From an uncultured virus (IMG/VR IMGVR_UViG_3300030329_003992) (taxonomy: Duplodnaviria > Heunggongvirae > Uroviricota > Caudoviricetes): a DNA stretch of 64,000 nucleotides. Under the pieces are notes generated by a model. That model searched no databases. It was not told the DNA's origin and saw only the letters and a program-made list of their open reading frames with translations. Numbering within the stretch: the stretch's first letter is position 1; every line of letters starts with the position of its first letter. Of the stretch, positions 34,993-58,320 are shown piece after piece. The stretch is taken from the IMG/VR virus record IMGVR_UViG_3300030329_003992; one strand, 5' to 3'. The position numbers were made by a program, and so were the translations under genes.

Positions 34993-35373
34993 ATGGCAAA
35001 TACATTCAAAGTAAAAACATTAAGCGCAATAAAATCAGATTCTGCAGATACTTTATACAGTTGTGCACAATCTACAACGGCAGTTTTATTGGGTTTGACA
35101 GTTACAAATACAAATACATCAACAGCAATTACTTGTACTGCTACGTTAGAATCAGATACAGCAGAAACTAAAACAGTTGCGTCAGCAGATGATACAACTG
35201 AAACAAATACAAATGTTACTCTTTTACCAGCAACAGAAATTCCAATAGCATCTTCTCTTGAATTTTTCTCTGGTCAAAAAGTAGTATTACAAGCAACAGA
35301 CAAATTAAAAGTACAAACAAATAAATCAGGTTTATCAATGGATTGTACTTTAAGTTTAATGGAAATTACCTAA
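34993..35373 (+). CDS. Small fibre connector protein (MANTFK type)
   Basis: MANTFK start, IPxxSSLE...KVVL...DKL, SLMEIT end; follows the ALAIALG-terminated fibre. Confidence 0.65.
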   Translation: MANTFKVKTLSAIKSDSADTLYSCAQSTTAVLLGLTVTNTNTSTAITCTATLESDTAETKTVASADDTTETNTNVTLLPATEIPIASSLEFFSGQKVVLQATDKLKVQTNKSGLSMDCTLSLMEIT

Positions 35374-36164
35374 TGAAATTTATAGGTTCTGAATTCAGCA
35401 CAAATATTGGTCATTTCGCAATGCGTGCACCAGTAGCAAATACTACTGATGGTGCAAGCTTTGGTTTTTCATCTGCGGGTGAACATATGATCAGAATTGA
35501 TTCAACAGGAGTATTTTTAGCAAATGCAACTATTGCGGGTGACTTAACAGTACAAGGAACTACAAGTTCACAAGGAGAATCAGAATCCTCTGATATTGTT
35601 TTGACACCTGGTTCAGCACCTACTTCAACAACAAATAAATTATATAATCTAAGTTCAGGTGGATTAACTTTTTCAGGTTCAAAAGTAATAACCACAACTG
35701 CGACACCTGGTGCAGCACAAATATATTTTGGTGATGATAATGGAGATATAATAACATCATCCAATTGCCAGTTTAATTTAACATCTACAAATGTATTAAC
35801 AATTACTGGTGATATTAGTGCAACAGGTGACCTTATAACAGAAGCATCTGATTCAAGATTAAAAGATGTTTCAGGTGTTATAACAGACGGGTTAAGCAGA
35901 ATTGAAAATATTAATCCAGTTGAATTTAAATGGAATGAAGAAGCACAAACCAAATATGATGCAGATGATAATCCTCATGTTGGTTTAATTGCACAAGAAG
36001 TTGAAGCAACGGTTCCAGAAATAGTTAAACCATCTCCATGGAATGGACAATACAAAACATTACAATATGAAAAAATGGTTCCAATATTATTATCAGCCAT
36101 TAAAGAATTGAATGAAAAGGTAGAAAAACTAGAACAACAATTGGAAAAACATAACCATGAATAG
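35373..36164 (+). CDS. Tail fibre protein with C-terminal peptidase S74 intramolecular chaperone
   Basis: ASDSRLK, PVEFKW, GLIAQEVE, YEKMVPILLSAIKEL; start placed at the TAATG overlap. Confidence 0.88.
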   Translation: MKFIGSEFSTNIGHFAMRAPVANTTDGASFGFSSAGEHMIRIDSTGVFLANATIAGDLTVQGTTSSQGESESSDIVLTPGSAPTSTTNKLYNLSSGGLTFSGSKVITTTATPGAAQIYFGDDNGDIITSSNCQFNLTSTNVLTITGDISATGDLITEASDSRLKDVSGVITDGLSRIENINPVEFKWNEEAQTKYDADDNPHVGLIAQEVEATVPEIVKPSPWNGQYKTLQYEKMVPILLSAIKELNEKVEKLEQQLEKHNHE

Positions 36165-37380
36165 GCAAATAGAATATAGTCCAACTTTAAATGATAAATG
36201 TTTTCCATTAATTGAAGTTGATGAAAATGTAGTTACAATAAAACTTTTCATGGATGTTTTTGATGGAGATGCAGTAGAGCATAAAGCAGGAGGATTGCCA
36301 CCACTAGGATATAATTATGCAAATAATGTATCTGGACATACTGTGATGACAAGACATAATCTTCATATTAGTGAAGGTCAAACTTATGAAATTTTTAATG
36401 GTGATATTTGGGCAGATGATGCATCAAAACAAGGAAGATGGTTTAAATTTGTTGGTGGAGCTCAAATAAAAAGAAGTGAAGATAAAAAATATGTACAATT
36501 TAGAACAACAGTTTTTGATAGAAATATGGAAGATCCGTCTGAAGGATATGAAGTAGGAAAACCTGATACTCCTGAATGGATAGATTGTTCTTTTTGGTCA
36601 TTTGATTATTCCTTTTCTGGAATGAATTTCTTTTCACCATATAATTTATTATTAGAAACCAAATCATCCCGTATGTCAGGTATGAGACATGAAGCAAGAC
36701 AAAATTTTGTTTTTAAACCTGTACAAACACAACACATTGAAGGTAAAACATATTATTCTACTTCAGAATTTTCTAAAAGAATTGGTGGAATGTTTTTGTT
36801 TGATAAAGATGATGATTTTAGAAATGCTTCTTGGTTTGTTAAAACATATGGAACTCCAAATGATGTTGATACTTCATATTATAAACCAGAAGGTGATATA
36901 GCAGATTCATTGTGGAGAAGAAATGATCAACTTTTAGTTAATTATCAGCAACTTCCAAATCCTGCTATTCATTTACAAATGCCAGAGACAGTCCAAAGAG
37001 ATGCATTAGTAAAAGGAAAAATTTCATTAATAGATATAAGCGATCAATTGTTGATGGAAAATGGTGATATTTTTATTACTGATGGTGTTCAAGAATCAAA
37101 TATAGATATAAATTGGCCAAGTGATTATATAGATTCAAACACAAAAGAAGCTGTAAATTCTTATGTTTACAATAAAGATGTTACAGTTTATATAAAAACA
37201 GATTCAGGATATATTTCTAAAAATAAAATAAATTTAATTAATGGTAAGGGTGAATTTTATTTTAGAGCATTGGATTTACAAATAGATGATGAAGCAGAAA
37301 TAAAAATAGGATTTAAAACTTTTAGTAATGTTTTAAGTCATACAATAAAAGTAAATTCAGGGTCAATGGGGAGTCAGTAA
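36157..37380 (+). CDS. Hypothetical tail-associated protein with beta-rich C-terminal domain
   Basis: 407 aa ORF between fibre genes; C-terminal GYISKNKI...GKGEFYFRALDL...KIGFK. Confidence 0.55.
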   Translation: MNRQIEYSPTLNDKCFPLIEVDENVVTIKLFMDVFDGDAVEHKAGGLPPLGYNYANNVSGHTVMTRHNLHISEGQTYEIFNGDIWADDASKQGRWFKFVGGAQIKRSEDKKYVQFRTTVFDRNMEDPSEGYEVGKPDTPEWIDCSFWSFDYSFSGMNFFSPYNLLLETKSSRMSGMRHEARQNFVFKPVQTQHIEGKTYYSTSEFSKRIGGMFLFDKDDDFRNASWFVKTYGTPNDVDTSYYKPEGDIADSLWRRNDQLLVNYQQLPNPAIHLQMPETVQRDALVKGKISLIDISDQLLMENGDIFITDGVQESNIDINWPSDYIDSNTKEAVNSYVYNKDVTVYIKTDSGYISKNKINLINGKGEFYFRALDLQIDDEAEIKIGFKTFSNVLSHTIKVNSGSMGSQ

Positions 37381-37964
37381 TGGCTTTTAAGGTAGGAACA
37401 ACCACAATAGTAGATCACCCATTAGATGTCCATTTAATCGATTTTAAAGCAGTAGTTCATGATGATTTTTCTACATATTCTGATGAGACGTGGAAATGTG
37501 AAGATAAAATTATAGCACAATTTAAATTTTGCAAATGTTCAAATGCATTTGGTGTAGTTTGTCCTAGTTATCCAACTTGGGGATATGATCAAACTGGTAA
37601 TTGTAATCCAATTAACGCTGGTGACATGCCAGCACATTATAGTCATCATAGAAGTCAACCCCCAGAAACAAATTTTCATACTTATTGGTGTTGTATATCA
37701 TGCACTTGTGCTTTAAATGCGACTTGTTCAGGTTGTATTTGTCATTGTTATAAATCTTGGGCAAGTACTACCGCAGATGGGTTTTTGTACTTTTTTGATT
37801 TATGTGAATCTTTTCAAAACATATGTCCAGGGTTTTGGAAGACAGGAGGATATGGTAATTCTTTTCAATTGGACGAATATGATTTAGATAAAAGTGGTTA
37901 TTTTATTTGTGACAGATATTGTACCGCAAAAGGATTTGGTGTAACACAAAACCCAGGGACATAA
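37380..37964 (+). CDS. Cys-rich fibre-like protein (17 Cys in 194 aa)
   Basis: MAFKVG start; CKC, CCISCTC, CICHC; TAATG-coupled. Confidence 0.65.
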   Translation: MAFKVGTTTIVDHPLDVHLIDFKAVVHDDFSTYSDETWKCEDKIIAQFKFCKCSNAFGVVCPSYPTWGYDQTGNCNPINAGDMPAHYSHHRSQPPETNFHTYWCCISCTCALNATCSGCICHCYKSWASTTADGFLYFFDLCESFQNICPGFWKTGGYGNSFQLDEYDLDKSGYFICDRYCTAKGFGVTQNPGT

Positions 37965-37966
37965 CT

Positions 37967-39562
37967 ATGGCATTTAAAATTAATAACAAATATTTATATT
38001 CTACTGCGTTTGATGGTACTTCTGATAAAAGTTCACCAGTTATGCCGTTTGCAAAAACAGATGGTACATTTCCTATAGTTAATAGTTCCGTTACTACTTG
38101 TTTAGCTCCACCACCAGCTTGTTCTCCTACTTCATCTCTTGGATCTGGAACCGCTAGAAGATTTATGTCTAATAGAGATGGTGATGTAGCAACTGCAGAT
38201 GTTTCTCCATTTACTTATTTTAGAAAATTACAATGTGATATGGCAACTGGTGGGTCAAATCCAAATGGAGAAAATTTTTGTTTAGTTTCTCTTGATGATG
38301 TGGTAGGTTATGATGGGGGTGAATATGGGGGAGTTTCATCAACTACAAATTTTGTTGATCCAAACAATACATCAAACTTTCTTTTACCACCAATCCAATG
38401 TCAATCATCTGGTAGTAGAAAACTAAGTAATCTTTTTCACGGTTGGGCTGAGTCTGATTATGCAAGAAATTGGTTAGGAATTAATGGACCTCTCGGTGGA
38501 CCAAGAGCTGATCCAGTAGGAACTAGCGGATCAGGGCATGGATGTCGAGATTTTCCAGATTTATGTAAAGGTTCTTTGTGGGTTACGCCTTGGGGTTATA
38601 AAAAATATTCAGCAGAAATGACTTCATTTTATACTCATAGTGTAGGTGATTACGTAGAAACTTCTACTGGCAATGTTACAGCTAACAAATGTTGTGGAAC
38701 AATAACAAATGGTTCTGTAATGTGGAGAAATTGTTTCCACAATGCAACAAATTTTTTATGGCAACGTTGGACATCTGGTTACGGGGTAGATAGTACTAAT
38801 AGTCAAGTTACACCTGCTAGATTTGAATCTGGATGTGGTTCTATGGCAGTTGATGGTGGATCTCCATTTGCAGCAAAAAGATTCATGACGAGGATTTCTG
38901 TTGGTAGATGGGCTCCAGGATATCAAGTTAGACAAAATTGGTCTGGTTGTTGGCAGACTACAGATGAAACTTCAATTGATGGAGTAACTTCTTCTCCAAG
39001 TCAAATTCTTCCAGATAATTCTTACATTACAGGATGCCATGACAAAGGATCTAATTGTTTAAATTCAGGAAATTTTTCTTCTTATTCTTGGCATGGTGAA
39101 AACAAACTTTATGATCAATGGAATAATTGTAGTGCAACAAATAGTTGGGCGGTAGGGCAGCAATCAGCATGTGCGGATGGTACTTTTGATGGTGATTGGA
39201 TTTTTCCTCATTGTTATCATTGGCATGATCCGGCTCCACCAAAAGGGTTTCATGTTGGTATTGGATTTGAAGCGGATTTTAGTGATATTTGCTCTGATCG
39301 AGGATGCGCATCCCAAGGTGGAATGTATGGAATGATGGCAAATTCTATAATGTTAGAAAATCAATGGAATTTAACTTTCGCAACTTCATATCCTGCTAAT
39401 GTTGATTTTAAATATTGGAATGGAAATTTATGTTCATCTGGTGGATGTTGTAGTTTAGGAAAGGTTCCTCATTCTGGAACATTTTCACAAACAGCAAATA
39501 TTACTTTTAATTTTCAAAATAATGATGCTTGTTCTGGAATAACTTCTATAGCATATTCATAA
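37967..39562 (+). CDS. Cys/Trp/Gly/Ser-rich fibre-like protein
   Basis: Start placed at ATG 37967 (MAFKIN, like its neighbour); about 23 Cys and 17 Trp by hand count. Confidence 0.65.
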   Translation: MAFKINNKYLYSTAFDGTSDKSSPVMPFAKTDGTFPIVNSSVTTCLAPPPACSPTSSLGSGTARRFMSNRDGDVATADVSPFTYFRKLQCDMATGGSNPNGENFCLVSLDDVVGYDGGEYGGVSSTTNFVDPNNTSNFLLPPIQCQSSGSRKLSNLFHGWAESDYARNWLGINGPLGGPRADPVGTSGSGHGCRDFPDLCKGSLWVTPWGYKKYSAEMTSFYTHSVGDYVETSTGNVTANKCCGTITNGSVMWRNCFHNATNFLWQRWTSGYGVDSTNSQVTPARFESGCGSMAVDGGSPFAAKRFMTRISVGRWAPGYQVRQNWSGCWQTTDETSIDGVTSSPSQILPDNSYITGCHDKGSNCLNSGNFSSYSWHGENKLYDQWNNCSATNSWAVGQQSACADGTFDGDWIFPHCYHWHDPAPPKGFHVGIGFEADFSDICSDRGCASQGGMYGMMANSIMLENQWNLTFATSYPANVDFKYWNGNLCSSGGCCSLGKVPHSGTFSQTANITFNFQNNDACSGITSIAYS

Positions 39563-39599
39563 CAACTATATATACTATTAACATTGAGGAAAGTAAAAA

Positions 39600-40433
39600 A
39601 TGGCTTTAAGATTTGGTGATACTGGAAAAAATATAAGACGTGATTTAGAAGTTAAATCAGATGGTTCTGTCTCTGTTTCTGCACAGATGATAGATCCTAG
39701 AACAATTCCAGGTGCTTACATATCAGGACAATTTTTCTTAAATGGCGTTAATATTAGTTCCACTGGTGATAATACAGACACGCAGACAGGAGCTTCTTTA
39801 AGACCATATAGTATTACTGATATAGGATTATTACAATATTCTTCATCTTGGTCGACACATCACAATGTATTATCAATAAAATATTCAAGAAATTGTAACT
39901 GTAAATGCAAATGTCAATGTAAGTGTAAATGCAAATGTAAGTGTAAATGCAAATGTAAGTGTAAATGCAAGTGCAAATGCAAGTGTAAATGTAAATGTAA
40001 ATGTGCTTGTAAGTGCAAGTGTAAATGTAAGTGTAAATGTGCTTGTGCTTGTTGGAGTGATTCAAGACTTAAAAATAATATAGAAGGTATGGAAGATGAT
40101 CAAAGTCTTGAAAAAATAAAACAAATTCAAGCTATTATGTTTAAATATAATGAAAAAGGTTTAGAATTTTATGAGGATGGATTAGTTCAAGCTCCAGCAG
40201 AAGGAGAAGATAATCCAGATGCACCATTAACAGAAGTTGCTAATGAAAATACAGTACAACAATTAGGATTTATGGCAGAAGAAATTGAACAAGTATTTCC
40301 TGAAATTGTTGATATGGTAGAATTAGAAAATCAAGAGTACAGAGCAGTTACATATGTACAAATGATTCCTGTTTTGTTGGAAGCAATTAAACAATTAAAT
40401 AAAAAGGTGGAAGATTTAGAAGACAAGGAGTGA
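39600..40433 (+). CDS. (Cys-X) repeat protein fused to a peptidase S74 chaperone domain
   Basis: GAGG RBS; 27 alternating Cys directly followed by WSDSRLKNNI, FKYN, GFMAEEIE, YVQMIPVLLEAIKQL. Confidence 0.85.
   Translation: MALRFGDTGKNIRRDLEVKSDGSVSVSAQMIDPRTIPGAYISGQFFLNGVNISSTGDNTDTQTGASLRPYSITDIGLLQYSSSWSTHHNVLSIKYSRNCNCKCKCQCKCKCKCKCKCKCKCKCKCKCKCKCKCKCACKCKCKCKCKCACACWSDSRLKNNIEGMEDDQSLEKIKQIQAIMFKYNEKGLEFYEDGLVQAPAEGEDNPDAPLTEVANENTVQQLGFMAEEIEQVFPEIVDMVELENQEYRAVTYVQMIPVLLEAIKQLNKKVEDLEDKE
39894..40052 (+). repeat. Hexamer coding repeat (TGY-NNN) encoding 27 Cys with 21 Lys, 3 Ala, 1 Asn, 1 Gln between them
   Basis: Read directly; TGT/TGC and AAA/AAG vary, with a recurring 18-bp unit TGTAAGTGTAAATGCAAA. 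Confidence 0.97.
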
Positions 40434-40437
40434 TATT

Positions 40438-41094
40438 ATGAATATTATGACACTTAACAATTATGGTGTTAGAAAACCAAATCTTGTAATTTATGAAGGA
40501 TGTTTTGATGTAAAGCAATGTGATGAATTACAAGAGTTGCAAAAAGGCAGAGATATAATCAAAGCTGAAAATGATGAAATAGTTCTTTCTAATTATAGAC
40601 ATACAAAAGATTTATATTCTTATGATAAATGTTTTCTTGATGAGACGATACATGAAAAACAAGAAGGAGATAATCAACCAAAAGATATTGTTTCTAAACT
40701 TCCAGAAAATTTAGAAGAACATTTAATGCAATATGTTTTTGATGCAAATGTAAAACAATTTGGTTATGAAATTTGGGGTATGGAATCAGACCCAATTATA
40801 TTGACTTTTAAAGAAAATGATTACTATGATTTTCATGAAGATATTTTATGGTATGATAATGAACCGAATGATAGAAAATTAAAAGGTTATGTTTTTCTGT
40901 CAGATAACACTATTTGTAAAGGTGGAGATTTAGTTTTTGATAAACATGCTGAATTATCATCACCATTGGGTGCTTATAATGTAAGAGGAAATTTAATTTT
41001 ATTTCCATCTTTTTTAAGTTACGCTTTTACTAAAGTAAAACAAGGATTTTTCCAAGTTCTTACTTTTGATATTATTGGACCAAATTTGAAGTGA
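40438..41094 (+). CDS. PKHD/P4H-like 2OG-Fe(II) oxygenase homolog, distal His missing
   Basis: FHED, RKL, GGDL, FPSFLSY, GP end. Confidence 0.7.
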   Translation: MNIMTLNNYGVRKPNLVIYEGCFDVKQCDELQELQKGRDIIKAENDEIVLSNYRHTKDLYSYDKCFLDETIHEKQEGDNQPKDIVSKLPENLEEHLMQYVFDANVKQFGYEIWGMESDPIILTFKENDYYDFHEDILWYDNEPNDRKLKGYVFLSDNTICKGGDLVFDKHAELSSPLGAYNVRGNLILFPSFLSYAFTKVKQGFFQVLTFDIIGPNLK

Positions 41095-41100
41095 GGTATT

Positions 41101-41649
41101 ATGTTATATGATCATATAGTTTTTCCTGGAGCAATTGATGAAATTATTGATGAATCACAAATGGTTCTTGAGGATTTAAAATCAAAGGGTTCATCATCTT
41201 CAGGTGTAGGTAAAAATGTTGATGTTAGTTGGTACGGCGGTGGTTATGTTAGTAATATTGAAGATAATGTTTTTTATTATTTTAAAAGAGCGAATCTTAT
41301 AAATTTTGGTTATAGTATTGATTATACTGAAGCATGTAGATGGGAACAATATAAACAAGGTGGAAGTTATTCCTTGAGAAAAGAATTGAATCATTTTTAT
41401 CAAAATCATATTGATAGAAAATTGGTTGCAGTAGTAAATATGAATGATTCTTTTGATCCAAAAAAGGATGGTGGTGGAATTATTCTATATGAATCTGATA
41501 GAAAAAGAACACCAGTTGATGATATTTTTTATAAAAAAAGAGGATCTATAGTGGTCTTTAATGTTTTTACAGGATATGAAATAGAAGAAGTTAAATGTGA
41601 AAATTTACAATACTTATTTTGTTTTTGTGTAGGAGATAAATGGCGTTAA
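41101..41649 (+). CDS. Degenerate PKHD-like 2OG-Fe(II) oxygenase homolog
   Basis: DRKL, GGG, RGSIVVF, G.KWR end; no HxD...H triad. Confidence 0.6.
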   Translation: MLYDHIVFPGAIDEIIDESQMVLEDLKSKGSSSSGVGKNVDVSWYGGGYVSNIEDNVFYYFKRANLINFGYSIDYTEACRWEQYKQGGSYSLRKELNHFYQNHIDRKLVAVVNMNDSFDPKKDGGGIILYESDRKRTPVDDIFYKKRGSIVVFNVFTGYEIEEVKCENLQYLFCFCVGDKWR

Positions 41650-43661
41650 ATCATATAGCAATATTAGGAAACAGTTTAGAGTCTAGATTAATGGCTCTTT
41701 GTGTTAAGTTAGCTGAACCTGATATGGAAGTTAAAATATATACAAATGGTCAAGACTATTCAATGAACATTCTTAGACCTGTAGGAAATTCTTTATGTGC
41801 ACAAGGACTTAAATTTTTACATGATTATTGTGGAATTAATAAAGAAACTTTTTGGACAAGAACTAATTCTACTCTTGCGATGGGAGAAGCATTTCAACAT
41901 AATAAACAGGATGGTTCTACAGAAAATGTATATTTACCATTACTAGGATCACATTTTCCAAATAGATTAGTTCATTATCAATGCGCAATAAAAAATTTTC
42001 ATCCAGATCTAGAGGAGAATGAACAATTTAGATTATTCTTAGAATATATTTTAATGAAATATCCAAATTCTAAAAATGCTATTACTGATACTTTAACTTG
42101 GTTTGCACCAGACAAGTATCATGCGGATAAACATTTAGAACACTTTTTTAATTTGGAAAATGCTATAATAGCTTCTGCTCCTGATGCAGATGATTTTCAA
42201 GTTGCGGAGGGAATGCCTGTTTGTTATGATTTTGATAGTATTAAATCTTTAATGGATGAAAAAATTACATCACTAAACATTCCAATAATTACTGATACAA
42301 TTCAAAGTATAACCGTTGAGCAATCAACTTCTCCTTATCTTGGTGCAGGAATGGTTTATGATCCAAATCTTGATGAATATGTTTCACGAGATCAAATTAA
42401 TGTTTTGAAAAATGAATATGATTCTTCTTTAAATACTTTGGGAAATGTTTTTGGAGAAGATGTTTATGGTGAAGGTGGATTGGAATATCATGCAACAAAT
42501 TTATTAGGAAAAGATTACAAAAATATTACAAAAATAACAATTGGCGGAACAGAATTTGATGTAGATTTTGTGGTTGATTGTGGTTGTACACATTCTCAAG
42601 TTGAAGATTTTATAGAAACTGATGGACCAAAAACTTCTATAAATGAAACATTTCCTTGGACACAATATAAAGAATATGAATCTTCAAGACATCATATGCA
42701 ATGTCATACTTTGTTTTATACAGACGGAATACCAAATGGTGCAAGATGTCACGAGGTTTATAGAAATAAAACAATTCATAAAGAATTTCAATTAGTTGAC
42801 GCACCTGTTGATGGTGTTACAGGACTTCATGCTAGTAAATACTTGGCTGGAGCAAAAGGAGACATTACAACAGTTTCTTTAAGTGGAAGAAATGTTCAAG
42901 ACAACCATCTTATAAATGATAAATTTAATTCTAATTATGTTAAATTTGATTTAAAACGTCAAGCGTTGAATCCAGCAATGAATGAGGATTCTGTTAATTT
43001 GTTTAGATATGCGTATATGGTACAAAAGAAAATATCTAATATTAATAAAGACCCAAGAAATCTACCAATATATTTGGGTTCAATACAATCTGTTTGGTAT
43101 GCTAATAGAAACGCATTTAAAAGAATGGCTTATTATGTTTGGGATAATAATACCATTGGCCCAGGATGGGAGTGGGCTAATAGTGTTCCGACATTTTTTC
43201 AAAACTTATTTGATTCTTGGAATGGTGGATTACCAAGATTACCAGGTATTGTAGATTATGCTGGGCAATCATTTTCATCTACATTCATTACGAAAGATTA
43301 TATCAATGAAGGAAGAATGCCTGGGTTGTCAGGTTATGGTGGATATATGGATAGAGAATGGGCATATGTTGCAGAAGCTAGGGGTAAAGTAACACAAGAT
43401 TTTTCTTCTAAATTTACTGGTGAACATGCTGACATTTTTGAGGATCTTAGGTTAATATCTATTTTACTTAAATATAAGTTTTATGAATTTGGATCATTAA
43501 CATTTGAAGAATTCAGATCTAGACATTTAGTTGGTGATGATTCTTTAAATCCTATTACTGGTAATCATATTGTTTTAGAGGATGGAACAGGAAAATTATT
43601 AACAAAGCATAGGTATATTCAAATGAAAGAATATGCAACTTCAGAAGATAGTTCTATATGA
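41640..43661 (+). CDS. Highly divergent tryptophan-halogenase-like protein
   Basis: HIAILG N-terminal strand, RTNSTLAMG (cf. KTGATVKLG), DFVVDCG; lacks GxGxxG, catalytic Lys and WxWxIP. Confidence 0.5.
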   Translation: MALNHIAILGNSLESRLMALCVKLAEPDMEVKIYTNGQDYSMNILRPVGNSLCAQGLKFLHDYCGINKETFWTRTNSTLAMGEAFQHNKQDGSTENVYLPLLGSHFPNRLVHYQCAIKNFHPDLEENEQFRLFLEYILMKYPNSKNAITDTLTWFAPDKYHADKHLEHFFNLENAIIASAPDADDFQVAEGMPVCYDFDSIKSLMDEKITSLNIPIITDTIQSITVEQSTSPYLGAGMVYDPNLDEYVSRDQINVLKNEYDSSLNTLGNVFGEDVYGEGGLEYHATNLLGKDYKNITKITIGGTEFDVDFVVDCGCTHSQVEDFIETDGPKTSINETFPWTQYKEYESSRHHMQCHTLFYTDGIPNGARCHEVYRNKTIHKEFQLVDAPVDGVTGLHASKYLAGAKGDITTVSLSGRNVQDNHLINDKFNSNYVKFDLKRQALNPAMNEDSVNLFRYAYMVQKKISNINKDPRNLPIYLGSIQSVWYANRNAFKRMAYYVWDNNTIGPGWEWANSVPTFFQNLFDSWNGGLPRLPGIVDYAGQSFSSTFITKDYINEGRMPGLSGYGGYMDREWAYVAEARGKVTQDFSSKFTGEHADIFEDLRLISILLKYKFYEFGSLTFEEFRSRHLVGDDSLNPITGNHIVLEDGTGKLLTKHRYIQMKEYATSEDSSI

Positions 43662-44491
43662 GAATATTTAAACAATTTGTACCTGAAGACTCAACCATTT
43701 ATTTAAGAACTACATTTGAAGAGATTCATGCAAGATATTATGCTCATTTATGTGTATCAAAAAAACGTCCTGATACAATGAAGTCAGAATATATGTGGAC
43801 TCTAAGACAAAGAGATGCGCGGGATGGATCATTTCAAATTGATGATTATTCAAACATAAGAAGCGTTCTCATAGCAATGAATGAAAAATTTAGATCATTA
43901 GGATATGAAAAAGAAGATTATCCAATTAAAGATATAAGATTTAAAAGATATACAGATAGAGAATCAAGCCTAGCTTCTGATGGTTATCAGTTTAATAAAT
44001 CTAAATATTCAATTCCAGTTAACATTATGAATGACGGACTTACAAGTAATTTAAAACAAGAAATTAATGATGGAAAAGTTTCAAAAAATATTATAGTTTA
44101 TTTGTCTAGAATAAATACTGGCAGATGGAAACAAAAACCATCAAAAAGAACCAAAACATGGTTATATTCTAATGATTGTGTTGCGACTGTGTGGGTAAAA
44201 CCAACAACTATCTATGTTAAAAAAAGTAATAGTGATGAATCTGTGAAAAGTATTCAAGTTAGAAGGGGCGATTTAACAATAGCAGATCATGAAGAAGTAT
44301 TTCTTGGTGATATAGTTGGTGACTTTGCTGAAGCATTTCATGTTATATACAAAGATTCACCCCTCAATCCACTTGAGAAGGGTGGATATAATTTTGTTTA
44401 TACACAACAAGAAGTAGTTGATTCACAAAATAAAATGGATGGAATGGTTTGGGAACCTACGGAAACTCCCTTTTCTGATATGGAAGGATAA
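43658..44491 (+). CDS. Hypothetical protein, possibly a degenerate 2OG-oxygenase fold
   Basis: IYV...VRRGDLTI...AFHVIY loosely resembles phage 2OG-like proteins; no HxD. Confidence 0.4.
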   Translation: MRIFKQFVPEDSTIYLRTTFEEIHARYYAHLCVSKKRPDTMKSEYMWTLRQRDARDGSFQIDDYSNIRSVLIAMNEKFRSLGYEKEDYPIKDIRFKRYTDRESSLASDGYQFNKSKYSIPVNIMNDGLTSNLKQEINDGKVSKNIIVYLSRINTGRWKQKPSKRTKTWLYSNDCVATVWVKPTTIYVKKSNSDESVKSIQVRRGDLTIADHEEVFLGDIVGDFAEAFHVIYKDSPLNPLEKGGYNFVYTQQEVVDSQNKMDGMVWEPTETPFSDMEG

Positions 44492-44492
44492 A

Positions 44493-46223
44493 ATGTTTGT
44501 TGAAAATATTATTGTAGTTGGTGGTGGAACTTCTGGGTGGATGACAGCATATTGGATGAAAAAGTTATTACCCGGTTTAAAAATTAAAGTTATTGCAAGT
44601 CCTGAAATTGACATTTTAGGTGCGGGTGAAGGTGGATTGCCAGTATTTTTAGGATGGTTTAAACAATGTGAAGTTGATCTAAAAGAATTCTTTCAAAAAA
44701 CTGGAGCAACAGTTAAATTGGGTATTGATTATAGAGATTGGTACGCCAAAGGTGAAAATTTTCTTCATCCATTTACAGGTGATTTAATTACTGTTGGTGG
44801 AGTAGAACATCCATCAAAAGAAGAAGATCCTGGAGAGGAAGAAGAAGATCCAGATATGGATGTAGAACATGAATTTGAAGAAAATCCTGAATTAGAAGTA
44901 GAAAACGCAAATAAACAAATCAGACGGGCCTATATAAATGGAATTTATGCGAGTCCAGAATTAAATTATTTAGAATGGACAAGTCCTTTCATGGAAGATG
45001 GTATTCCAAATCACTCATTAGAAAAGTTAATGGAAATATTATCTGATAATCAAATGAGCGGTGTAAGCTTACATTTTGACGCAGTTAAAGTTGGAGAATT
45101 TTTTAAAGAAAAATGTTTAGATCTGGGTGTTGAATATTTTAGTGAAACAGTTTTAGACATTGAAACCGATGGGGAAGGTTCTGTTACAGAAGTTATTACA
45201 AAAGATAGAAAGTTTGAATGTGATCTTATTTTTGATTGTTCAGGACAAAGAAGATTAATTTCAAGTAAATTTGATGATGATAATGATTGGTGGCCTTTTG
45301 GTTTTTTAACTGTAAATAGTGCATTACCTTTTGTTTTAGAAAATCCTGAAGGTGCGGATCTTGATATGTGGACAACTGCACAAGCAATGGATTTTGGTTG
45401 GATGTGGAAAATACCATTGCAACATAGACAAGGTTGTGGTTATGTTTTTGATGACAGATTTATTGATTTTGATCTTGCTCAACAAGAAGTAGAAACATTT
45501 TTAAGAAGAAAAATTAATCCACTGAAAAAGATAAGTTTTCAAGCGGGTTACTTGGAAAAACCTTGGGCAAAAAATTGTATTAGTATAGGAATGTCACAAA
45601 GTTTTGTTGAACCTTTAGAAGCTACGGCTTTGGGTTCAGTTTGTGTTCAACATTTTATGTTAAGAGATTTAATTCAAGGATTGGTATCTAAATTTGAAGA
45701 AAAACCAGTTTCAAAATTTGATGGATGGGAAGAAATTAATTGGGATGAGGGTGATTATAAAATTGCACAATTAGAATATAATGCTTTATGTGGAAATATC
45801 ATTAGAGAAATTGCTGATTTTGTCCATGGTCATTATTATTCACCAAGAAAAGATACTGAATTTTGGGATAGTAGAAAAGAACTATTTAGCATGGGAGATG
45901 AAGATTACTCTGGATCAGGAGAATCTATGTCTCATAAAATGAAAATGTGGAAAACTCATCCTGTTTATTATGAACCAGAAACACAAGCACAGAAGATATA
46001 TAATGAATTTAATTTACTATGTGTATTTGATGGGTTACATATATATGATAGAGAAGAAAGAAAACTTTTGTTAGAAAACCATCCGTTCATGCAGAAATGG
46101 ATGACACCACAAAATCTTGAAGATTTTAAACAATATTTTTCTAACATGAAAACTTCTTTAAATGAAGACAGATTAACCCAATTAGAATACTTAAAAAAAT
46201 ATGAGTTGCTTGCTAAAACCTAG
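44493..46223 (+). CDS. Flavin-dependent tryptophan halogenase-family protein
   Basis: VVGGGTSGW, GAGEG, GATVKLGI (catalytic-Lys position), DLIFDCSG, GWMWKIP, FVEPLEAT; start placed at ATG 44493. Confidence 0.9.
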   Translation: MFVENIIVVGGGTSGWMTAYWMKKLLPGLKIKVIASPEIDILGAGEGGLPVFLGWFKQCEVDLKEFFQKTGATVKLGIDYRDWYAKGENFLHPFTGDLITVGGVEHPSKEEDPGEEEEDPDMDVEHEFEENPELEVENANKQIRRAYINGIYASPELNYLEWTSPFMEDGIPNHSLEKLMEILSDNQMSGVSLHFDAVKVGEFFKEKCLDLGVEYFSETVLDIETDGEGSVTEVITKDRKFECDLIFDCSGQRRLISSKFDDDNDWWPFGFLTVNSALPFVLENPEGADLDMWTTAQAMDFGWMWKIPLQHRQGCGYVFDDRFIDFDLAQQEVETFLRRKINPLKKISFQAGYLEKPWAKNCISIGMSQSFVEPLEATALGSVCVQHFMLRDLIQGLVSKFEEKPVSKFDGWEEINWDEGDYKIAQLEYNALCGNIIREIADFVHGHYYSPRKDTEFWDSRKELFSMGDEDYSGSGESMSHKMKMWKTHPVYYEPETQAQKIYNEFNLLCVFDGLHIYDREERKLLLENHPFMQKWMTPQNLEDFKQYFSNMKTSLNEDRLTQLEYLKKYELLAKT

Positions 46224-46416
46224 AAAAATAAAAAAATTTAAAATAAAAAAAGTAAACAATCCTAAAGTAAAAGCTGAGCGTCAATATAAAGAGTTAAGTA
46301 TTGACAGATGCAAAAAAATTACTTGTGTGAGGGCATATTCTTTTGATAGAAGAATAAGTTACAAATTAACTTATGGCGATATGTTTATGACACACGAAAT
46401 AAAAGGGATGGAATAA
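46201..46416 (+). CDS. Small basic hypothetical protein
   Basis: Fills the gap; TAATG-coupled to the radical SAM gene. Confidence 0.45.
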   Translation: MSCLLKPRKIKKFKIKKVNNPKVKAERQYKELSIDRCKKITCVRAYSFDRRISYKLTYGDMFMTHEIKGME

Positions 46417-47765
46417 TGTCAGTAGATAAAGATTTAACTTATACATTGATCTGTGATGATGGGGCAAAGTTTTATTATAAACCTCATGTAAGTTCTTTAA
46501 AAGATGAAGAAGGAAAAGACTTGTATAGTATGAATCCAGTTGCCATTAGGAAAGTTAATAAATGGTATATGGAATCCCCTGGAGAAGGTTGTGGCGGTGT
46601 TGAGGTTAATCCTATTCATCCACTTTTTAATCCTGGAAAAAAGACAAGAGCACCAGGAAGACTTAAAATCCAATTAGGATTAAAATGTAATTATTCATGC
46701 GAGTATTGTTCTCAAGCGTCATTTGTTCCAGACGCAACAGTAACAGATAGTGATGATTTAGAAGAATTTATGCAAAGGTTGGATGATAGATTAGATCTAG
46801 CAGGATGTGGTACTGTAGAATTGTGGGGTGGTGAACCATTATTATATTGGAAAAAAATTAAAGCATTGGTTCCTTTTTTAAAAGGGAGGGTCGCAGAAGA
46901 TTGTGAATTTACTATTGTTACAAATGGCAGTTTAATAAATCAAGAAAAGATTGATTTTTTTAAAGAACATAAAATAGATATAACTATGAGTCATGATGGA
47001 CCTGGATATCATTTGAGAGGTCCTGATCCATTAGACAATCCTAGAAAATTTAGATTTATTCAACAGATGGTAGATTTAAATGATCAAGAAGAACTTGGGT
47101 TTTCTTTTAGTATGGTTTGGACAAAAGAAAACACAAAAGATTTTGATCATACTGTAAATTGGTTTGCCGATAAATTTAAAGATAAAAATGTTCCAGTGAG
47201 TGCAGAAGGTATTGTGGAAGCATATGATATAGACACTGCTATGAATGAAAAAACTGGAAAGTTTGATTATTCTGGTTTAGAAGATTTAGAAGAAAGATTT
47301 TTTAAAGGTTTAACTGAAGGTAATAGACCATTGATGAAAGTATTCACTTCTGTTGATAAAATAAATGAGTTTTATGGTACTCTTATACATAAAAAAGATA
47401 GCGATTATGTTGGTCAAAAATGTGGTATGGATCAGGATGATGATTTGGCAGTTGATTTAAAAGGAAATGTTTTAACTTGTCAAAATGTTGGATTGGAGAA
47501 AAAACATCTATCAGGCCATATGGATAAAATGGAAGAAGTTAGGACAAAATCAAGTCAACATTGGACTTGGAGAAAAGAATGTAGAAGTTGTCCAGTTGTT
47601 CAATTGTGTCAAGGTTCTTGTATGTTTTTAAAAGGAAAAGAATTTGCACAAACTTGTTGGAATGAATACGCATATAACATGGCACATTTAAGAGCAGCAA
47701 TTAAATTCATAACTGGTAAAACAATTGTTGATATAGAAGGAAAACAAGAACGACCTGAATTATAG
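46416..47765 (+). CDS. Radical SAM protein with C-terminal SPASM domain (peptide/protein maturase type)
   Basis: CNYSCEYC, WGGEPLL, VTNG, SHDG; C-terminal KCG...TCQ...CRSCPVVQLCQGSC...C. Confidence 0.9.
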   Translation: MSVDKDLTYTLICDDGAKFYYKPHVSSLKDEEGKDLYSMNPVAIRKVNKWYMESPGEGCGGVEVNPIHPLFNPGKKTRAPGRLKIQLGLKCNYSCEYCSQASFVPDATVTDSDDLEEFMQRLDDRLDLAGCGTVELWGGEPLLYWKKIKALVPFLKGRVAEDCEFTIVTNGSLINQEKIDFFKEHKIDITMSHDGPGYHLRGPDPLDNPRKFRFIQQMVDLNDQEELGFSFSMVWTKENTKDFDHTVNWFADKFKDKNVPVSAEGIVEAYDIDTAMNEKTGKFDYSGLEDLEERFFKGLTEGNRPLMKVFTSVDKINEFYGTLIHKKDSDYVGQKCGMDQDDDLAVDLKGNVLTCQNVGLEKKHLSGHMDKMEEVRTKSSQHWTWRKECRSCPVVQLCQGSCMFLKGKEFAQTCWNEYAYNMAHLRAAIKFITGKTIVDIEGKQERPEL

Positions 47766-47772
47766 GAATATT

Positions 47773-48432
47773 ATGTATAATAGAAATGATATGTCTAATG
47801 GTGATGATTATGATGCAGTAAAATCAGATGGTGGAGCTATGCATGGTCCATTTTTTGGTTCTGATATGGACTATCATATAATCAATTATAAAAAATCCCC
47901 ATATGTAATTTATGATAACTTTTTTCATTCAACATTATGTGATAAATTACTCAATATCACAGAACAATTCCCATACAAAAAATATAATGATGGAAAATCT
48001 AGATTTGAATACATAAGTTTAAATGAAAATTTAGAAAGAAAAGATTTAAGATGGATTAAAAGACCATTAACAGAATTAGTAGAGGATGCTAACAATACTA
48101 ATTTTATGGTTGATATTAATTCAGTAGAATTTTTTAACCTATTTAAATTTGAAATAGGAGATCATAGAGGGTGGCGTCATGATTGTGATTGGTTTTTTAA
48201 CGGATTAGCTTTTGATAAAAAACTTACAGTAATAATAGAATTAAATGAGCCAGATGATTATGAAGGTGGAGAATATGGTGAATATATGAGTACAATTCCA
48301 TTCCCCAAACAACACTTAAATAGAGGTAGTGTTTTAATTATACCTGCATATTACTATTATAACATAGATGATATTTTAGCAGGTACTAGAAAAATGTTAA
48401 TTGCTAATGTGATAGGTCCAAAATTTAGATGA
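47773..48432 (+). CDS. PKHD-like 2OG-Fe(II) oxygenase homolog with altered metal ligands
   Basis: KKLTVII, DYEGGE, RGS, GTRK, GPKFR; RHD in place of HxD and Tyr at the distal His. Confidence 0.7.
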   Translation: MYNRNDMSNGDDYDAVKSDGGAMHGPFFGSDMDYHIINYKKSPYVIYDNFFHSTLCDKLLNITEQFPYKKYNDGKSRFEYISLNENLERKDLRWIKRPLTELVEDANNTNFMVDINSVEFFNLFKFEIGDHRGWRHDCDWFFNGLAFDKKLTVIIELNEPDDYEGGEYGEYMSTIPFPKQHLNRGSVLIIPAYYYYNIDDILAGTRKMLIANVIGPKFR

Positions 48433-49124
48433 TTACAAGTCCAAACCAAATAAACACGCATAGACATACCTCATTAGAGGAACATAATTATAATGAAATG
48501 TCTGATGCAAGAAAACCTTATTTTTTTAAAAGACAAATATTTTCAGATTCAGAGTGTGACTTGTTGTGGTCATATTGGAATGAGGATGAATGTTTTGTTG
48601 AAGATGATGTCACTCCTGACAGTCCATGGTACAAATATTTTAGAGAGTTGAGAAGTAGAAAACATATGTTTTTGGAGGGAAATTTTAATTCAACTCCACC
48701 AAAGAAAGGACTTCTTACAGAAATTCCTTATGATTTACTATGGTTAGAAAAAAGAATACATTATTATGTTGAACAAGCAAACAAGGAATGTTTCTATTTA
48801 GATATTAGTTTTGGATTAATGTCTAAACAATTAATGTATTATGGTGTAGGTGATTGGTTTCAACCACATGATGATACAAATCATTGGGATAATCATCATT
48901 ATGATAGAAAGTTAACAATTATAATTCAATTGTCTGATGGTGAAGACTATGAAGGTGGATATACTACAGTTGGTGAACCAGGAGAATTTGAACAACCAAA
49001 ACATCAAAAAGAACGTGGAAGTATTTTTATATTCCCTACATTTTTAACTCATGCAGTTAGTAAAATAACAAGTGGTGAAAGAAAGGCATTTATATGTTGG
49101 TACATTGGCCCGAAGTTCCGGTAA
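48429..49124 (+). CDS. PKHD-type 2OG-Fe(II) oxygenase, intact
   Basis: PHDD, RKLTIIIQLS, YEGG, FPTFLTHAV, SGERK, GPKFR. Confidence 0.9.
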   Translation: MITSPNQINTHRHTSLEEHNYNEMSDARKPYFFKRQIFSDSECDLLWSYWNEDECFVEDDVTPDSPWYKYFRELRSRKHMFLEGNFNSTPPKKGLLTEIPYDLLWLEKRIHYYVEQANKECFYLDISFGLMSKQLMYYGVGDWFQPHDDTNHWDNHHYDRKLTIIIQLSDGEDYEGGYTTVGEPGEFEQPKHQKERGSIFIFPTFLTHAVSKITSGERKAFICWYIGPKFR

Positions 49125-50002
49125 AATCAGATTTACATATCGTTGAAAATGGACTTGGTAAAGTTGCGTTATGGTCAAATATTATTCATGATTTAAAAAA
49201 GAAAGATCCCGAGAAAAGAATATCAATCCAATCCCCTTGGCCTGATTTGTATGATAAACATAAGGACATTTATAGTTCTATTCATGTCATGGATCAATCC
49301 GTAGATTATAAAAAATATTTTGATAAGATGATTTATCATGAACCATATAAATCTCATTATTTAAAAAAAGATATACACATGACAAAAGCATGGAGAGATA
49401 TGTATGATCTACCTGATGGTGATACTTGCATTGATCTTCATGTTTCAGAACCAGATGCTTTATATTGTAATCAAATCATTTCTAATATGCAAGAAAAACC
49501 TTATGTACTTTTACAATTAAAAGGTGGAACAAATGTAGGACAAAAAGCATATTCTCCTGATCATCAAGGTTTTATGAAAGCAAGAAATTATGAAATGGAT
49601 TATGAGTTGGTTACAGAATTATATAATAATTATAATAAAGATTATTTCTTTTTGATAATAAGAACAAAGAATGATCCTTATAGTCCTAGTTTAGAAAATT
49701 ATCCTGAACTTGGTTTTTTAGAAGATGAGAAAATTTCAGTGTTACATGCCATAGCACAAAACTGTAAAACTTTTATATCTATAGATAGTTGTGTACAACA
49801 TTTTTGTTCACAAAGGGGTAATATAAAAAAAGGTGTGGTGATGTGGGGAGCACCTACTGATCCAATAACAATTGGACATGATTGGAATGTTAACTTAATG
49901 TCTGAACATCCTTCTAAAGTTAGTGTAGAAGTGAATACAGTTATGGAAGCATTTGAATCTATCATAAAACCTAATAAAAAAATAGATGAATCAACTAAGT
50001 AA
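49094..50002 (+). CDS. GT9-like glycosyltransferase
   Basis: GLGK, EPY, LLQxxGG, FISIDSCVQH, GVVMWG; start uncertain. Confidence 0.65.
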   Translation: MLVHWPEVPVKSDLHIVENGLGKVALWSNIIHDLKKKDPEKRISIQSPWPDLYDKHKDIYSSIHVMDQSVDYKKYFDKMIYHEPYKSHYLKKDIHMTKAWRDMYDLPDGDTCIDLHVSEPDALYCNQIISNMQEKPYVLLQLKGGTNVGQKAYSPDHQGFMKARNYEMDYELVTELYNNYNKDYFFLIIRTKNDPYSPSLENYPELGFLEDEKISVLHAIAQNCKTFISIDSCVQHFCSQRGNIKKGVVMWGAPTDPITIGHDWNVNLMSEHPSKVSVEVNTVMEAFESIIKPNKKIDESTK

Positions 50003-50747
50003 TGAATATAAGAAATATCTTTTTGATTACGCTGATGAGGGAAATTATATTGAAGACTTTTTATCTGCAGAAGAAAGAATAGAATCATATAATTTAACCA
50101 GAGTTAGTGAAAAAGATATATTAGGTAGAAGATCAAGTATTCATAAAGTTTTTGATAATAGATTTAATAAAAAATTACATTTCAGAGTTATTCCTCAATT
50201 ATATCCTAAAGAAAATCCTGACAATTTTAGAATTGACGGCATGTGTTTGTTAGATTTGTCAGAACCAACTAAACCACATATTGATGGTTATTATCCAGAA
50301 CAAGGAAATTATTACATAATAAAAATTTGTATAACTCCAATTGCTTTTGATACAGAAGAAGAAAATGTTGAAAACATAAGAACAACATTTATAACTTTTG
50401 ATCAACATTACAATGAATATGTTCGTGGTGGTATTGAAGTAGACAGAGCAATGGAAACTGACAGTCTTCCAGATAGTTGGCAGGATATGCATGGTAATAA
50501 TTTACAAAATCATAATGAATCATTCATTCCAGAAGATTCCCCAAAAGAAGATTTTAGACACGTTGTATATCAATTTGATGGTGAAATGCAATATGGTTTA
50601 AACATACAAAATAAATTTGATATGAAGTTGGGTGATATGGCTACAATTAATCCTTATCAAATGCACATGACAAAAGATTATGCTCTAAGTCCAATTGATG
50701 GAAAATGGGTTTTTAGATTTAGTATTTTAAGAAAAAAATATGAATAG
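49986..50747 (+). CDS. Divergent 2OG-Fe(II)/cupin-like oxygenase (paralog 1)
   Basis: PHID...GLNI...LGD...QMH. Confidence 0.55.
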   Translation: MNQLSNEYKKYLFDYADEGNYIEDFLSAEERIESYNLTRVSEKDILGRRSSIHKVFDNRFNKKLHFRVIPQLYPKENPDNFRIDGMCLLDLSEPTKPHIDGYYPEQGNYYIIKICITPIAFDTEEENVENIRTTFITFDQHYNEYVRGGIEVDRAMETDSLPDSWQDMHGNNLQNHNESFIPEDSPKEDFRHVVYQFDGEMQYGLNIQNKFDMKLGDMATINPYQMHMTKDYALSPIDGKWVFRFSILRKKYE

Positions 50748-53849: not shown

Positions 53850-54399
53850 TACCAAACTTAGAAACGGTGTTATGAAGTTTAAAGAAGGCACTGTTAAACT
53901 AAGCGGTAAAATATTAGACATGGGATGTGGTGACATGCCATATCATAATGATCTGGGATCTGATGATGTGGTTGGTATTGATCTTCCAGATGATTTGAGA
54001 TTAAAAAGTACTTGGTCTAGATTTGAAGATAATGAATTTGATTGTGTTATTTCTTTTGGTGTTTTGCATTGGTTAGGAAATAAAAATTGGTTACAAGAAT
54101 CATATAGAGTTTTAAAAGATGGTGGTCTGTTTCATCATTACTTTTGGGAAAGAAAACAAATAGAAAAACCAGAAATAAGATTGTCAATGAGTGGTATGCC
54201 AACTCCATATAAGAGATCACAACAAGAAGCGTATGATGAATTTACTAAAGTAGGATTTAAAGTTGATCAATGTATAGATGTGAATCCTAAGATAATAGGT
54301 GCTAATCCCATGTTTAGGTTTCTCAAGATAAATAGTTTGAAATCTATTTTTGAAAAACAACCTAAAATACATTTTCTCAGAATTTGGGGAACAAAATGA
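53824..54399 (+). CDS. Class I SAM-dependent methyltransferase
   Basis: ILDMGCG, VGID, FDCVISFGVLHW, RVLKDGG. Confidence 0.88.
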   Translation: MDYHITLSDTKLRNGVMKFKEGTVKLSGKILDMGCGDMPYHNDLGSDDVVGIDLPDDLRLKSTWSRFEDNEFDCVISFGVLHWLGNKNWLQESYRVLKDGGLFHHYFWERKQIEKPEIRLSMSGMPTPYKRSQQEAYDEFTKVGFKVDQCIDVNPKIIGANPMFRFLKINSLKSIFEKQPKIHFLRIWGTK

Positions 54400-57533: not shown

Positions 57534-57534
57534 A

Positions 57535-58309: not shown

Positions 58310-58320
58310 GGTGGTATTAT
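58292..58320 (+). promoter_or_regulatory. Sigma70-type promoter at the end of the RuvC-like CDS
   Basis: A-tract, TTGACA 58292-58297, 17 bp, TGn-TATTAT 58315-58320. Confidence 0.7.

Follow-up and report, generated by a model that had tools for sequence, protein, structure and literature searches.

The gene at 39600..40433 of a 64,000-nucleotide stretch of viral DNA (IMG/VR record IMGVR_UViG_3300030329_003992, from an uncultured member of the Caudoviricetes; the whole stretch is called the window below) encodes a small tail-fibre-like protein in which cysteine occupies every second position of a 53-residue tract, and this tract directly abuts an S74 intramolecular chaperone domain. We favour, at a probability of roughly 55%, the reading that the tract is the cysteine-lined core of a trimeric virion fibre stalk for which the S74 domain sets the register and which metal-thiolate bonds or disulfides hold locked; the protein itself would be a small trimeric virion fibre, whisker or fibre-tip protein.

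Architecture of the tract protein

The tract (residues 99-151) reads C-N-C-K-C-K-C-Q-(C-K)14-C-A-(C-K)5-C-A-C-A-C and is followed immediately by W152 and then by S153-D-S-R-L-K158, an instance of the S-D-x-x-x-K dyad motif of the S74 class. The Pfam profile Peptidase_S74 (PF13884) matches residues 153-237 (E 2.1e-10), scoring 41.1 bits where 22 are required, over profile positions 1-57 of 58, so that the match opens at Ser153 itself. An earlier note on this DNA, made from the letters alone, had described 53 residues with 27 Cys and 21 Lys ending in CACAC-W-S-D-S-R-L-K, and had recognised a C-terminal S74 chaperone whose Ser-Lys motif stands directly after them; the translated open reading frame reproduces the former to the residue, and the Pfam match upholds the latter. 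PHROG tail-fibre families match the C-terminal part only of the 277-residue protein. The N-domain ahead of the tract, which starts with the motif M-A-[LI]-[KR]-[IF]-G (alignments A1, A3), looks ordinary and, judged from sequence, beta-rich, and is conserved at about 80-105 residues across the family.

The tract is also a DNA repeat. Its codons are TGT (20), TGC (7), AAA (13) and AAG (8); Tandem Repeats Finder reports a period-6 array of 24.5 copies with 77% match as well as a period-36 array; a threefold 18-nt repeat lies inside the tract; and three consecutive TGYAAR hexamers occur 15 times in the window, all at 39918-40037 (expected 0.01; none of 100 shuffles reached 15). An 83-residue open reading frame (H-K-H-I-Y-T-Y-I...) runs antisense across the tract at 39814-40065 on the minus strand and has counterparts in relatives, for example at L057 2870-3184; it is a by-product of the repeat.

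Distribution of the family

A word-indexed search of 5.8 billion clusters returned three full-length protein relatives (P0001, P0002 and P0003), and when 1.84 billion representatives were searched exhaustively with a profile, 15,392 S74 proteins came up at E <=1e-3, P0001 being the sole full-length match. Contigs as well as gene calls break at the tract (P0155 and P0156, for instance, start just 3′ of it), which leaves the family poorly represented in protein databases. Searched as DNA, the pattern N-C-N-C-K-C-K-C was present at 21 IMG/VR loci and at least 122 metagenome loci, and the architecture of the tract protein was recognised in at least 25 loci (25 of the 143 among the matches listed). 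The window, these 25 loci and P0001-P0003 together provide the 19 distinct tract variants on which the counts below are based. The homologs retain the cysteine periodicity, as the reading of the earlier note would lead one to expect.

A scan of IMG/VR for (TGYAAR)6 gave 78 loci, some of them on the same contigs as IMG/VR loci of the N-C-N-C-K-C-K-C scan; the tract gene accounts for 5 of the 78, and the other 73 are unrelated, mostly stop-to-stop frames of fewer than 60 residues and many of them in giant-virus bins. Indeed, (TGYAAR)n microsatellites of 6-20 units, apparently without coding function, are common in the AT-rich viral contigs of IMG/VR (L001-L078), many of which are giant-virus metagenome-assembled genomes (GVMAG). 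When IMG/VR was scanned instead for (C-x)5 directly before [S]-D-x-x-L-K, four loci were found, two belonging to the tract family and two being short junk frames.

Isolated phages and solved structures offered little. Megablast of 35000-45000 against isolated phages gave no match; tblastn of the tract protein against the phage collection (50,697 records) aligned the S74 part only, in 11 records; and the N-domain and the neighbouring genes were found in no isolated phage of that collection. The pattern Y-x-x-N-C-N-C-K-C-K-C occurred at two loci in a genome collection of 185,579 species, and because both are microsatellite junk they give no clue to the host. A phmmer search of PDB sequences with the tract protein gave no match, a PDB profile search only two weak ones (6f45_A, an S74 protein, E 0.018; and a human MT1A fusion, E 0.03, compositional), and for residues 1-152 the best scores in the ESM Atlas were 0.80, under the meaningful level of that tool. 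One further entry, P0004 (305 residues, on a 1232-nt contig), fuses the C-terminal half of a tract-family S74 domain to a PALP (PF00291) enzyme and is probably a chimeric assembly.

Selection on the tract

Across the 19 variants the in-register positions are cysteine in 485 of 486 cases, the lone exception being a Trp in P0001. The intervening X positions (n=486) are more permissive, with K at 317, A at 50, Q at 33, N at 26, L at 20, W at 14, V at 7, D at 6, R at 4, F at 3, and G, I and E at 2 each, and with P, S, T, H, Y and M at none. Since cysteine is nearly invariant while X tolerates A, Q, N, L, V, W, D and E, selection is stronger on cysteine than on charge.

Pairwise codon comparisons point the same way. 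Specifically, i) between the window and locus L090 the tract differs at 0 of 54 codons in amino acid but at 19 synonymously, while 77 of 200 flanking codons carry an amino-acid change (Fisher p 2.2e-10 against the tract); ii) between the window and L211, a near-identical strain, the 54 tract codons hold 0 amino-acid and 16 synonymous changes and 151 flanking codons hold 8 of each, a synonymous excess in the tract with p 2e-5; and iii) the Q and A positions within the tract are identical in the window, L211 and L090. The simplest explanation for the faster synonymous turnover in the tract than in the flanks is that repeat units exchange sequence with one another. On these alignments, the tract's amino-acid sequence is under strong protein-level selection, its length and its cysteines included, and the preference of the earlier note for such selection over simple slippage is thereby vindicated (p 2e-10). 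The tract is an unusually clean case of an in-frame hexamer repeat whose length and amino acids are fixed while its synonymous sites churn faster than the flanks.

Length, too, is kept across deep branches. Tracts of 25-29 Cys-X units occur in 16 of the 19 variants; the three shorter ones, P0002 (12 units), P0003 (21) and P0001 (23), have near-identical siblings with 25, 28 and 28 units, respectively. A tree built from the flanks only resolves two clades, each with support of 100/100 and separated by 1.1 changes per site, and both keep 25-29 units.

Support for the tract as assembled was judged from contigs of public runs and from metagenome assemblies. A 1131-nt contig of run X8, which is not itself flagged as a possible source but is only partly independent because it shares a study with a run that is, covers 39500-40257 without gaps and with 9 base differences, 8 of them inside the tract; by manual count all 9 fall at third codon positions. 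Contigs of runs X7, X11 and X17 end within the tract, and these breaks are uninformative about its length because k-mer assemblers stop at repeats. An identical 27-unit tract is encoded in six loci from separate metagenome assemblies (L090, L110, L168, L188, L192 and L211), and the window and these six comprise five distinct DNA versions among seven sequences.

Cleavage motif and the two clades

Phage S74 domains trimerise, template a trimeric beta structure just upstream and cleave themselves off at the Ser by means of a Ser-Lys dyad (PMC8326128, PMC4690869). The corresponding motif S-D-x-x-L-K follows the tract in 13 of the 19 variants, preceded by W in 12 and by L in one. The remaining 6 have neither the Ser nor the Lys, continue for example as F-N-L-G-T-D-N-D-G, and form one monophyletic clade; none of three such proteins scanned matches PF13884 (E up to 1), in contrast to four of four other dyad-bearing relatives. 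Outside the motif, the C-domain of the dyad-less proteins can still be aligned with the S74 domain. To judge from these sequences, the C-domain of the dyad-less clade probably stays attached. The claim that the tract lies exactly at an autocleavage site thus holds for the dyad-bearing clade, where S153 directly follows W152, and fails for the dyad-less clade; since the latter keeps the tract, serving as a mature C-terminus is not essential to it.

In T5 pb1 and K1F the passenger of a neighbouring chain supplies a helper Arg (and Asp), Arg1250 in the former and Arg897 in the latter (PMC4690869, PMC8326128). The window protein has no Arg in residues 99-152, though many Lys.

The window holds a second small fibre with an S74 domain of its own (35343/35373-36164; 263-273 residues; PF13884 E 1.5e-13), in which A-S-D-S-R-L-K stands at residue 169 of the TTG-started frame behind an ordinary, Cys-free sequence; it serves as an internal comparison. 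Other, unrelated small S74 proteins from metagenomes do carry a Cys-rich stretch directly before S-D-x-x-L-K (P0018, P0044, P0051, P0099 and P0041, also P0124), with patterns that include C-x-C with N-W-S-C-P in P0018, C-Q-x repeats in P0044 and G-C-G-A-C among such proteins. Of 133 motif-bearing matches with at least 20 upstream residues, ranked in a way that is biased by the Cys columns of the query profile, 7 have at least four Cys in the preceding 30 residues, 2 of these 7 being the tract family itself, and 92 have none. Comparison of the tract family with P0044 by hhalign aligned the S74 part only and did not show a shared N-domain, and no loci related to P0018 were found in IMG/VR. These sequences suggest that a Cys clamp beside an S74 chaperone is a recurrent solution.

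Structural models

In all members the last strand of the N-domain reads L-x-I-x-Y-x-[TQR]-x-C-x-C, with L-x-I-x-Y-x-x-N running into the tract. Because the registers of strand and tract are in phase, the cysteines would prolong the hydrophobic side, and X the polar side, of an amphipathic beta strand; and the scarcity of Gly (2/486) and absence of Pro (0/486) at X argue for one uninterrupted element.

AlphaFold2 monomer models had a mean predicted local distance difference test score (pLDDT) of 50.9 for the whole protein (14-row alignment) and 49.5 for the N-domain (18 rows); the tract came out as coil at about 33 and the N-domain strands at low confidence (about 50). A model of three copies scored 0.69 against 0.00 for the best of three controls, so that the trimerisation proposed in the earlier note finds support at the level of a model; the pass mark used is reached by 20 of 30 proteins solved as one-chain pairs and, among those with a single-chain structure, by 1 of 23. 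Its runs agree in at least 47% of contacts, with partner pLDDT of at least 47. The confident interface spans residues 151-277, with in-register helix contacts at 252-270, and the C-terminal helix forms the modelled trimer core. Within the tract only residues 113, 115, 117, 129, 131 and 133 enter the modelled interface, and all six are Cys, a hint in favour of a register with the cysteines facing inward.

How the stalk could be built and locked

We envisage five steps: i) the S74 domain would trimerise first through its coiled coil and set the three chains in register; ii) the tract of about 54 residues would then zip from its C-terminal ends into an extended, beta-type three-chain stalk, with every Cys turned to the axis of the trimer, in the same phase as the hydrophobic side of the strand that ends the N-domain, and with Lys or other X residues outward; iii) in the clade of the window, self-cleavage between Trp152 and Ser153 would release the S74 domain, so that the chain would end in the stalk; iv) 25-29 layers of three cysteines each would lock the rod, either by metal-thiolate bonding (of Zn, Cu(I) or Cd type), where Lys would offset the charge of the thiolates as it does in metallothioneins, or by inter-chain disulfides formed after lysis in oxic seawater; and v) the Lys shell would render the rod soluble and polycationic, and suited to contact with anionic cell surfaces. 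A strong core would be needed because 63 lysines must be held together.

The extended stalk geometry, the cleavage and all of the cross-link or metal chemistry we infer by comparison with better-known proteins: H-x-H pairs that face the axis of T4 gp37 bind iron (PMC11705849, citing Bartual 2010); Lys beside Cys tunes the thiol pKa and offsets the negative charge of the metallothionein cluster (PMC10243857); and reactive C-terminal cysteines take part in assembly of the P22 tailspike trimer (PMC3357383). By such analogies metal-thiolate and disulfide locking seem about equally likely. The fibre must fold in the reducing cytoplasm, and metals are available there.

Several points weigh against this account of the stalk. 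The monomer models are unusable, and the pLDDT of the trimer model is under 50; the pass of the trimer moreover rests on the S74 domain and may come from the likeness of that domain to solved S74 trimers; and the PDB profile search retrieved no solved counterpart for a long, turn-free, three-chain parallel beta stalk. Presence in the virion we infer from gene context. The three short tracts are either real slippage variants, in which case length is less constrained than it seems, or repeat-collapsed assemblies. Cleavage is not assured, because the tract has no Arg for the helper role of the T5 pb1 and K1F type, and in the dyad-less clade the tract would have to work in front of a retained C-domain. 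As to the chemistry, three cysteines per layer is an odd number for disulfides, and a metal in every layer would, on rough reasoning, cost a nutrient-poor host many atoms.

Genomic setting

The window has about 32% G+C, all of its long open reading frames lie on the plus strand, and it carries T4-type replication genes for primase, thymidylate synthase, ribonucleotide reductase and RNase H; the RNase H shows its best tblastn identities with Synechococcus phage S-CREM1 (46%) and Methylophilales phage Melnitz (43%). We take the phage to be an uncultured marine T4-like myovirus. Far from the tract gene, a Mom-like DNA modification protein (5457-6254; PHROG 1384, E 6.7e-31) adjoins a methyltransferase-like gene (6254-6907).

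Very long fibre proteins of 2394, 1144, 751 and 1855 residues fill 15.9-35 kb, PHROG tail-fibre families match the genes at 15871, 23067 and 35343, and the tract gene stands at the end of this fibre block. After the second S74 fibre (35343-36164) come a 407-residue protein and then three genes whose products begin M-A-[FL]-[KR]-[VIF]-[GN], the tract gene being the third (Table 1). Cys makes up 8.7%, 4.3% and 9.7% of the products of these three, whereas its share in the large fibre proteins is 0.2-0.9%. The first two have no Pfam, PHROG or NCBIfam match; relatives keep two such Cys-rich genes in place, their sequences diverging fast, with two invariant cysteines only in the family of the 194-residue protein. 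In all five IMG/VR loci that were read, the order is S74 fibre, protein of about 400 residues, two MAF proteins, tract protein, two partners and a protein of about 670 residues; the 407- and 673-residue neighbours occur in no isolated phage of the collection.

Table 1. Coordinates in the window of the tract gene, its parts and its main neighbours
Feature	Position	Strand	Remarks	Basis
Whole gene	39600..40433	+	277 residues plus stop; small tail-fibre-like protein	Open reading frame list, homologs
GAGG ribosome-binding site	39586..39589	+	10 nt 5′ of ATG	Read from sequence
N-domain, residues 1-98	39600..39893	+		Alignments A1, A3
Cys-X tract, residues 99-151	39894..40052	+	27 Cys, 21 Lys, 1 Asn, 1 Gln, 3 Ala	
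Trp152	40053..40055	+	Before predicted scissile bond	
S74 intramolecular chaperone domain, residues 153-277	40056..40430	+		Pfam PF13884; trimer model
Ser153	40056-40058	+	Predicted nucleophile	
Lys158	40071-40073	+	Of predicted Ser-Lys dyad	
Upstream neighbour, 194 residues	37380..37964	+	Starts MAFKVG; 17 Cys (8.7%); syntenic in relatives	
Upstream neighbour, 531 residues	37967..39562	+	Starts MAFKIN; 23 Cys (4.3%), Trp- and Gly-rich; syntenic	
Downstream partner, 218 residues	40438..41094	+	Weak 2OG-Fe(II)-oxygenase-like match below cut-off	
Downstream partner, 182 residues	41101..41649	+	Weak 2OG-Fe(II)-oxygenase-like match below cut-off	
Radical SAM/SPASM enzyme	46416..47765	+	About 6 kb 3′ of tract gene; five genes between	

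The two downstream partners resemble 2-oxoglutarate (2OG)-dependent oxygenases in Pfam only below the cut-offs (E 0.0042 and 0.00084), and the H-x-D...H triad is conserved in neither: in one, His133 is invariant, the residue at +2 is D, N, R, D or R and the distal His is not conserved; in the other, the His of the H-I-D present in the window is itself not conserved. We would therefore not class them as dioxygenases; instead of enzymes they may be partners of the fibre or factors in its assembly.

An island of about 20 kb of tailoring type (41640-60143) lies 3′ of the partners. It holds the 673-residue protein, which has no family match; Trp_halogenase proteins at 44418 and 52689; radical S-adenosylmethionine (SAM) enzymes at 46416 and 50740; 2OG oxygenases at 47773 (PHROG match only), 48429 and 56550; a methyltransferase at 53824; and a GT1 glycosyltransferase at 59085. 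The island resembles the dioxygenase/halogenase arrays of cyanophage Syn9, whose role is given as unknown, with secondary-metabolite synthesis proposed (PMC2938197). The enzyme at 46416-47765 combines a radical SAM core (PF04055, 47.8 bits) with a SPASM domain (TIGR04085, 34.6 bits, the cut-off being 27). Among NCBIfam families it comes closest, in all cases far below the cut-offs, to Cys-acting maturases of peptides: PapB ranthipeptide (2.1e-20), SCIFF (1.6e-13) and the Cys-rich peptide maturases.

Alternative explanations

A bolder version of the stalk makes the metal itself the point: a linear metal-thiolate array in which each of the 25-29 three-Cys layers holds or shares Zn, Cu(I) or Cd, or else a variant stapled by thioethers through the radical SAM/SPASM enzyme. 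We regard this as possible, on the unlikely side. If the metal array were real, the protein would be a "thiolate wire" without solved counterpart, and abundant marine T4-like virions would act as thiol ligands of trace metals, a sulfur analogue of the H-x-H fibres of the "Ferrojan horse" idea. An iron-sulfur wire is unlikely on general grounds, as an iron-sulfur chain exposed in an oxic, extracellular virion, and Lys-Cys N-O-S bridges were set aside because within a single strand the two kinds of residue would point in opposite directions.

Two explanations strike us as doubtful to an equal degree. According to the first, the tract is a substrate scaffold whose cysteines (perhaps also its lysines) are modified by the downstream island, for instance into thioethers by the radical SAM/SPASM enzyme, the outcome being a covalently stapled, redox-insensitive fibre. 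The enzyme does have a SPASM domain above cut-off, its best family matches, though far below their cut-offs, are maturases acting on Cys, its gene lies about 6 kb downstream of the tract gene in all four related contigs searched (62-76% identity), and three consecutive Cys-rich proteins precede the island. Five genes intervene, however; common descent leads one to expect synteny between T4-like phages that are related; cyanophages without such a fibre carry dioxygenase/halogenase arrays for which a secondary-metabolite role was proposed (PMC2938197); and the adjacent 2OG-like proteins, with sub-cut-off Pfam scores, lack the conserved metal triad.

The second would make the Lys face the working part, a polycationic adhesion rod for anionic host polymers, with Cys merely a small, closely packed core devoid of special chemistry. 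Lys occupies 65% of X positions (317/486), about 21 per chain in the window; the gene sits within the receptor-binding block; and in T5 pb1 departure of the chaperone unmasks the receptor site (PMC4690869). Yet it is X that tolerates A, Q, N, L, V, W, D and E and Cys that is essentially invariant, and Ala, Ser or Val, which would pack equally well, never appear in the Cys register.

That the tract is a slippage-prone in-frame hexamer microsatellite, a length-variable spacer under little coding constraint, is improbable and largely refuted by the codon counts. Such repeats are common as non-coding DNA (73 of the 78 six-unit IMG/VR loci are not this gene), and the threefold 18-nt repeat, the shorter variants beside longer siblings and the raised synonymous turnover also speak for it; but there are no amino-acid changes in the tract where the flanks differ at 38% of codons, the Q and A positions are kept exactly among the window, L211 and L090, 25-29 units are held across deep branches, mixed codons break the DNA repeat, and the frame stays open over 277 residues, unlike non-coding (TGYAAR)n.

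Least probable of all is the alternative raised in the earlier note, that the protein is the precursor of a ribosomally synthesized and post-translationally modified peptide with the tract as released, modified core and the S74 domain as self-removing follower: the Cys-rich repeat does share a gene block with a SPASM maturase-like enzyme, and Cys-rich repeat precursors are, by the names of NCBIfam families, known partners of SPASM enzymes, but that gene, about 6 kb downstream, is the sole link to such a pathway, the protein is not a short precursor beside its maturase, the conserved beta-rich N-domain of about 80-105 residues is continuous in register with the tract, its N-terminal motif is common to neighbouring proteins of the fibre module, S74 domains are known, from PMC8326128 and PMC4690869, only as trimer chaperones of fibres and spikes, one clade without the cleavage dyad retains the tract, and scanning the window with Pfam and PHROG turned up neither a leader protease nor an exporter gene.

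Comparison with known systems

The Cys-lined, S74-registered stalk that we favour shares its framework with the S74 fibres and spikes represented by K1F endosialidase, T5 pb1 and the GA-1 neck appendage, in which a C-terminal PF13884 domain opens with S-D-x-x-x-K (PMC4690869, PMC8326128); a predicted coiled-coil trimer and a setting in a block of fibre genes are further likenesses. It differs from them in that the passenger is tiny (152 residues), the scissile Ser abuts 53 residues of Cys-X where those proteins have a triple beta-helix with an ordinary composition, the tract has no helper Arg, and a sister clade has neither dyad nor Pfam match.

The needle of T4 gp37, with its seven iron ions, is similar in that ligands at i and i+2 would face a three-fold axis (PMC11705849), and the "Ferrojan horse" idea shares the marine phage setting (10.1101/674382). 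The tract protein has no H-x-H and 26 overlapping C-x-C, offering thiolates instead of imidazoles; its sites would be continuous where those of gp37 are a few spaced pairs, and metal in the tract is our extrapolation. Metallothioneins are alike in their very high Cys content, in having the motifs C-x-C and C-K-C, and in pairing Cys mainly with Lys (PMC10243857), and the human MT1A fusion was the second-best match of the PDB profile search, though compositional and not significant. No metallothionein family in Pfam or NCBIfam matches the tract protein, and metallothioneins form small, monomeric, globular clusters, unlike period-2 tracts in a trimeric fibre protein.

Few-cysteine staples of trimeric fibres are familiar, the C-terminal cystine knot of collagen III being one. 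Another is the cysteine annulus of the P22 tailspike, where Cys near a C-terminal registration domain align or lock three chains (PMC3357383); the cysteines there are few and the disulfides, as described in that source, transient and absent from the native protein, as against 25-29 layers in the tract. The precursors of SCIFF, "Cys-every-fifth" and ranthipeptides likewise combine repetitive Cys with a SPASM enzyme in the same conserved block; they are short peptides next to their maturase, unlike a protein of 277 residues 6 kb away.

We found no description of an alternating Cys or Cys-Lys tract in a phage or S74 protein among the matches listed from open-access papers and preprints. S74-assisted fibres are familiar; a strictly period-2 Cys stalk of fixed length is not. 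The tract probably represents a hitherto undescribed kind of rod, cross-linked or stapled by metal. If it is stapled by metal, it would represent a thiolate route for the sequestration of trace metals by marine viruses and a template for conductive or metal-templating protein wires; if by disulfides or thioethers, it would be a new way of making a very short fibre kinetically stable after its chaperone leaves.

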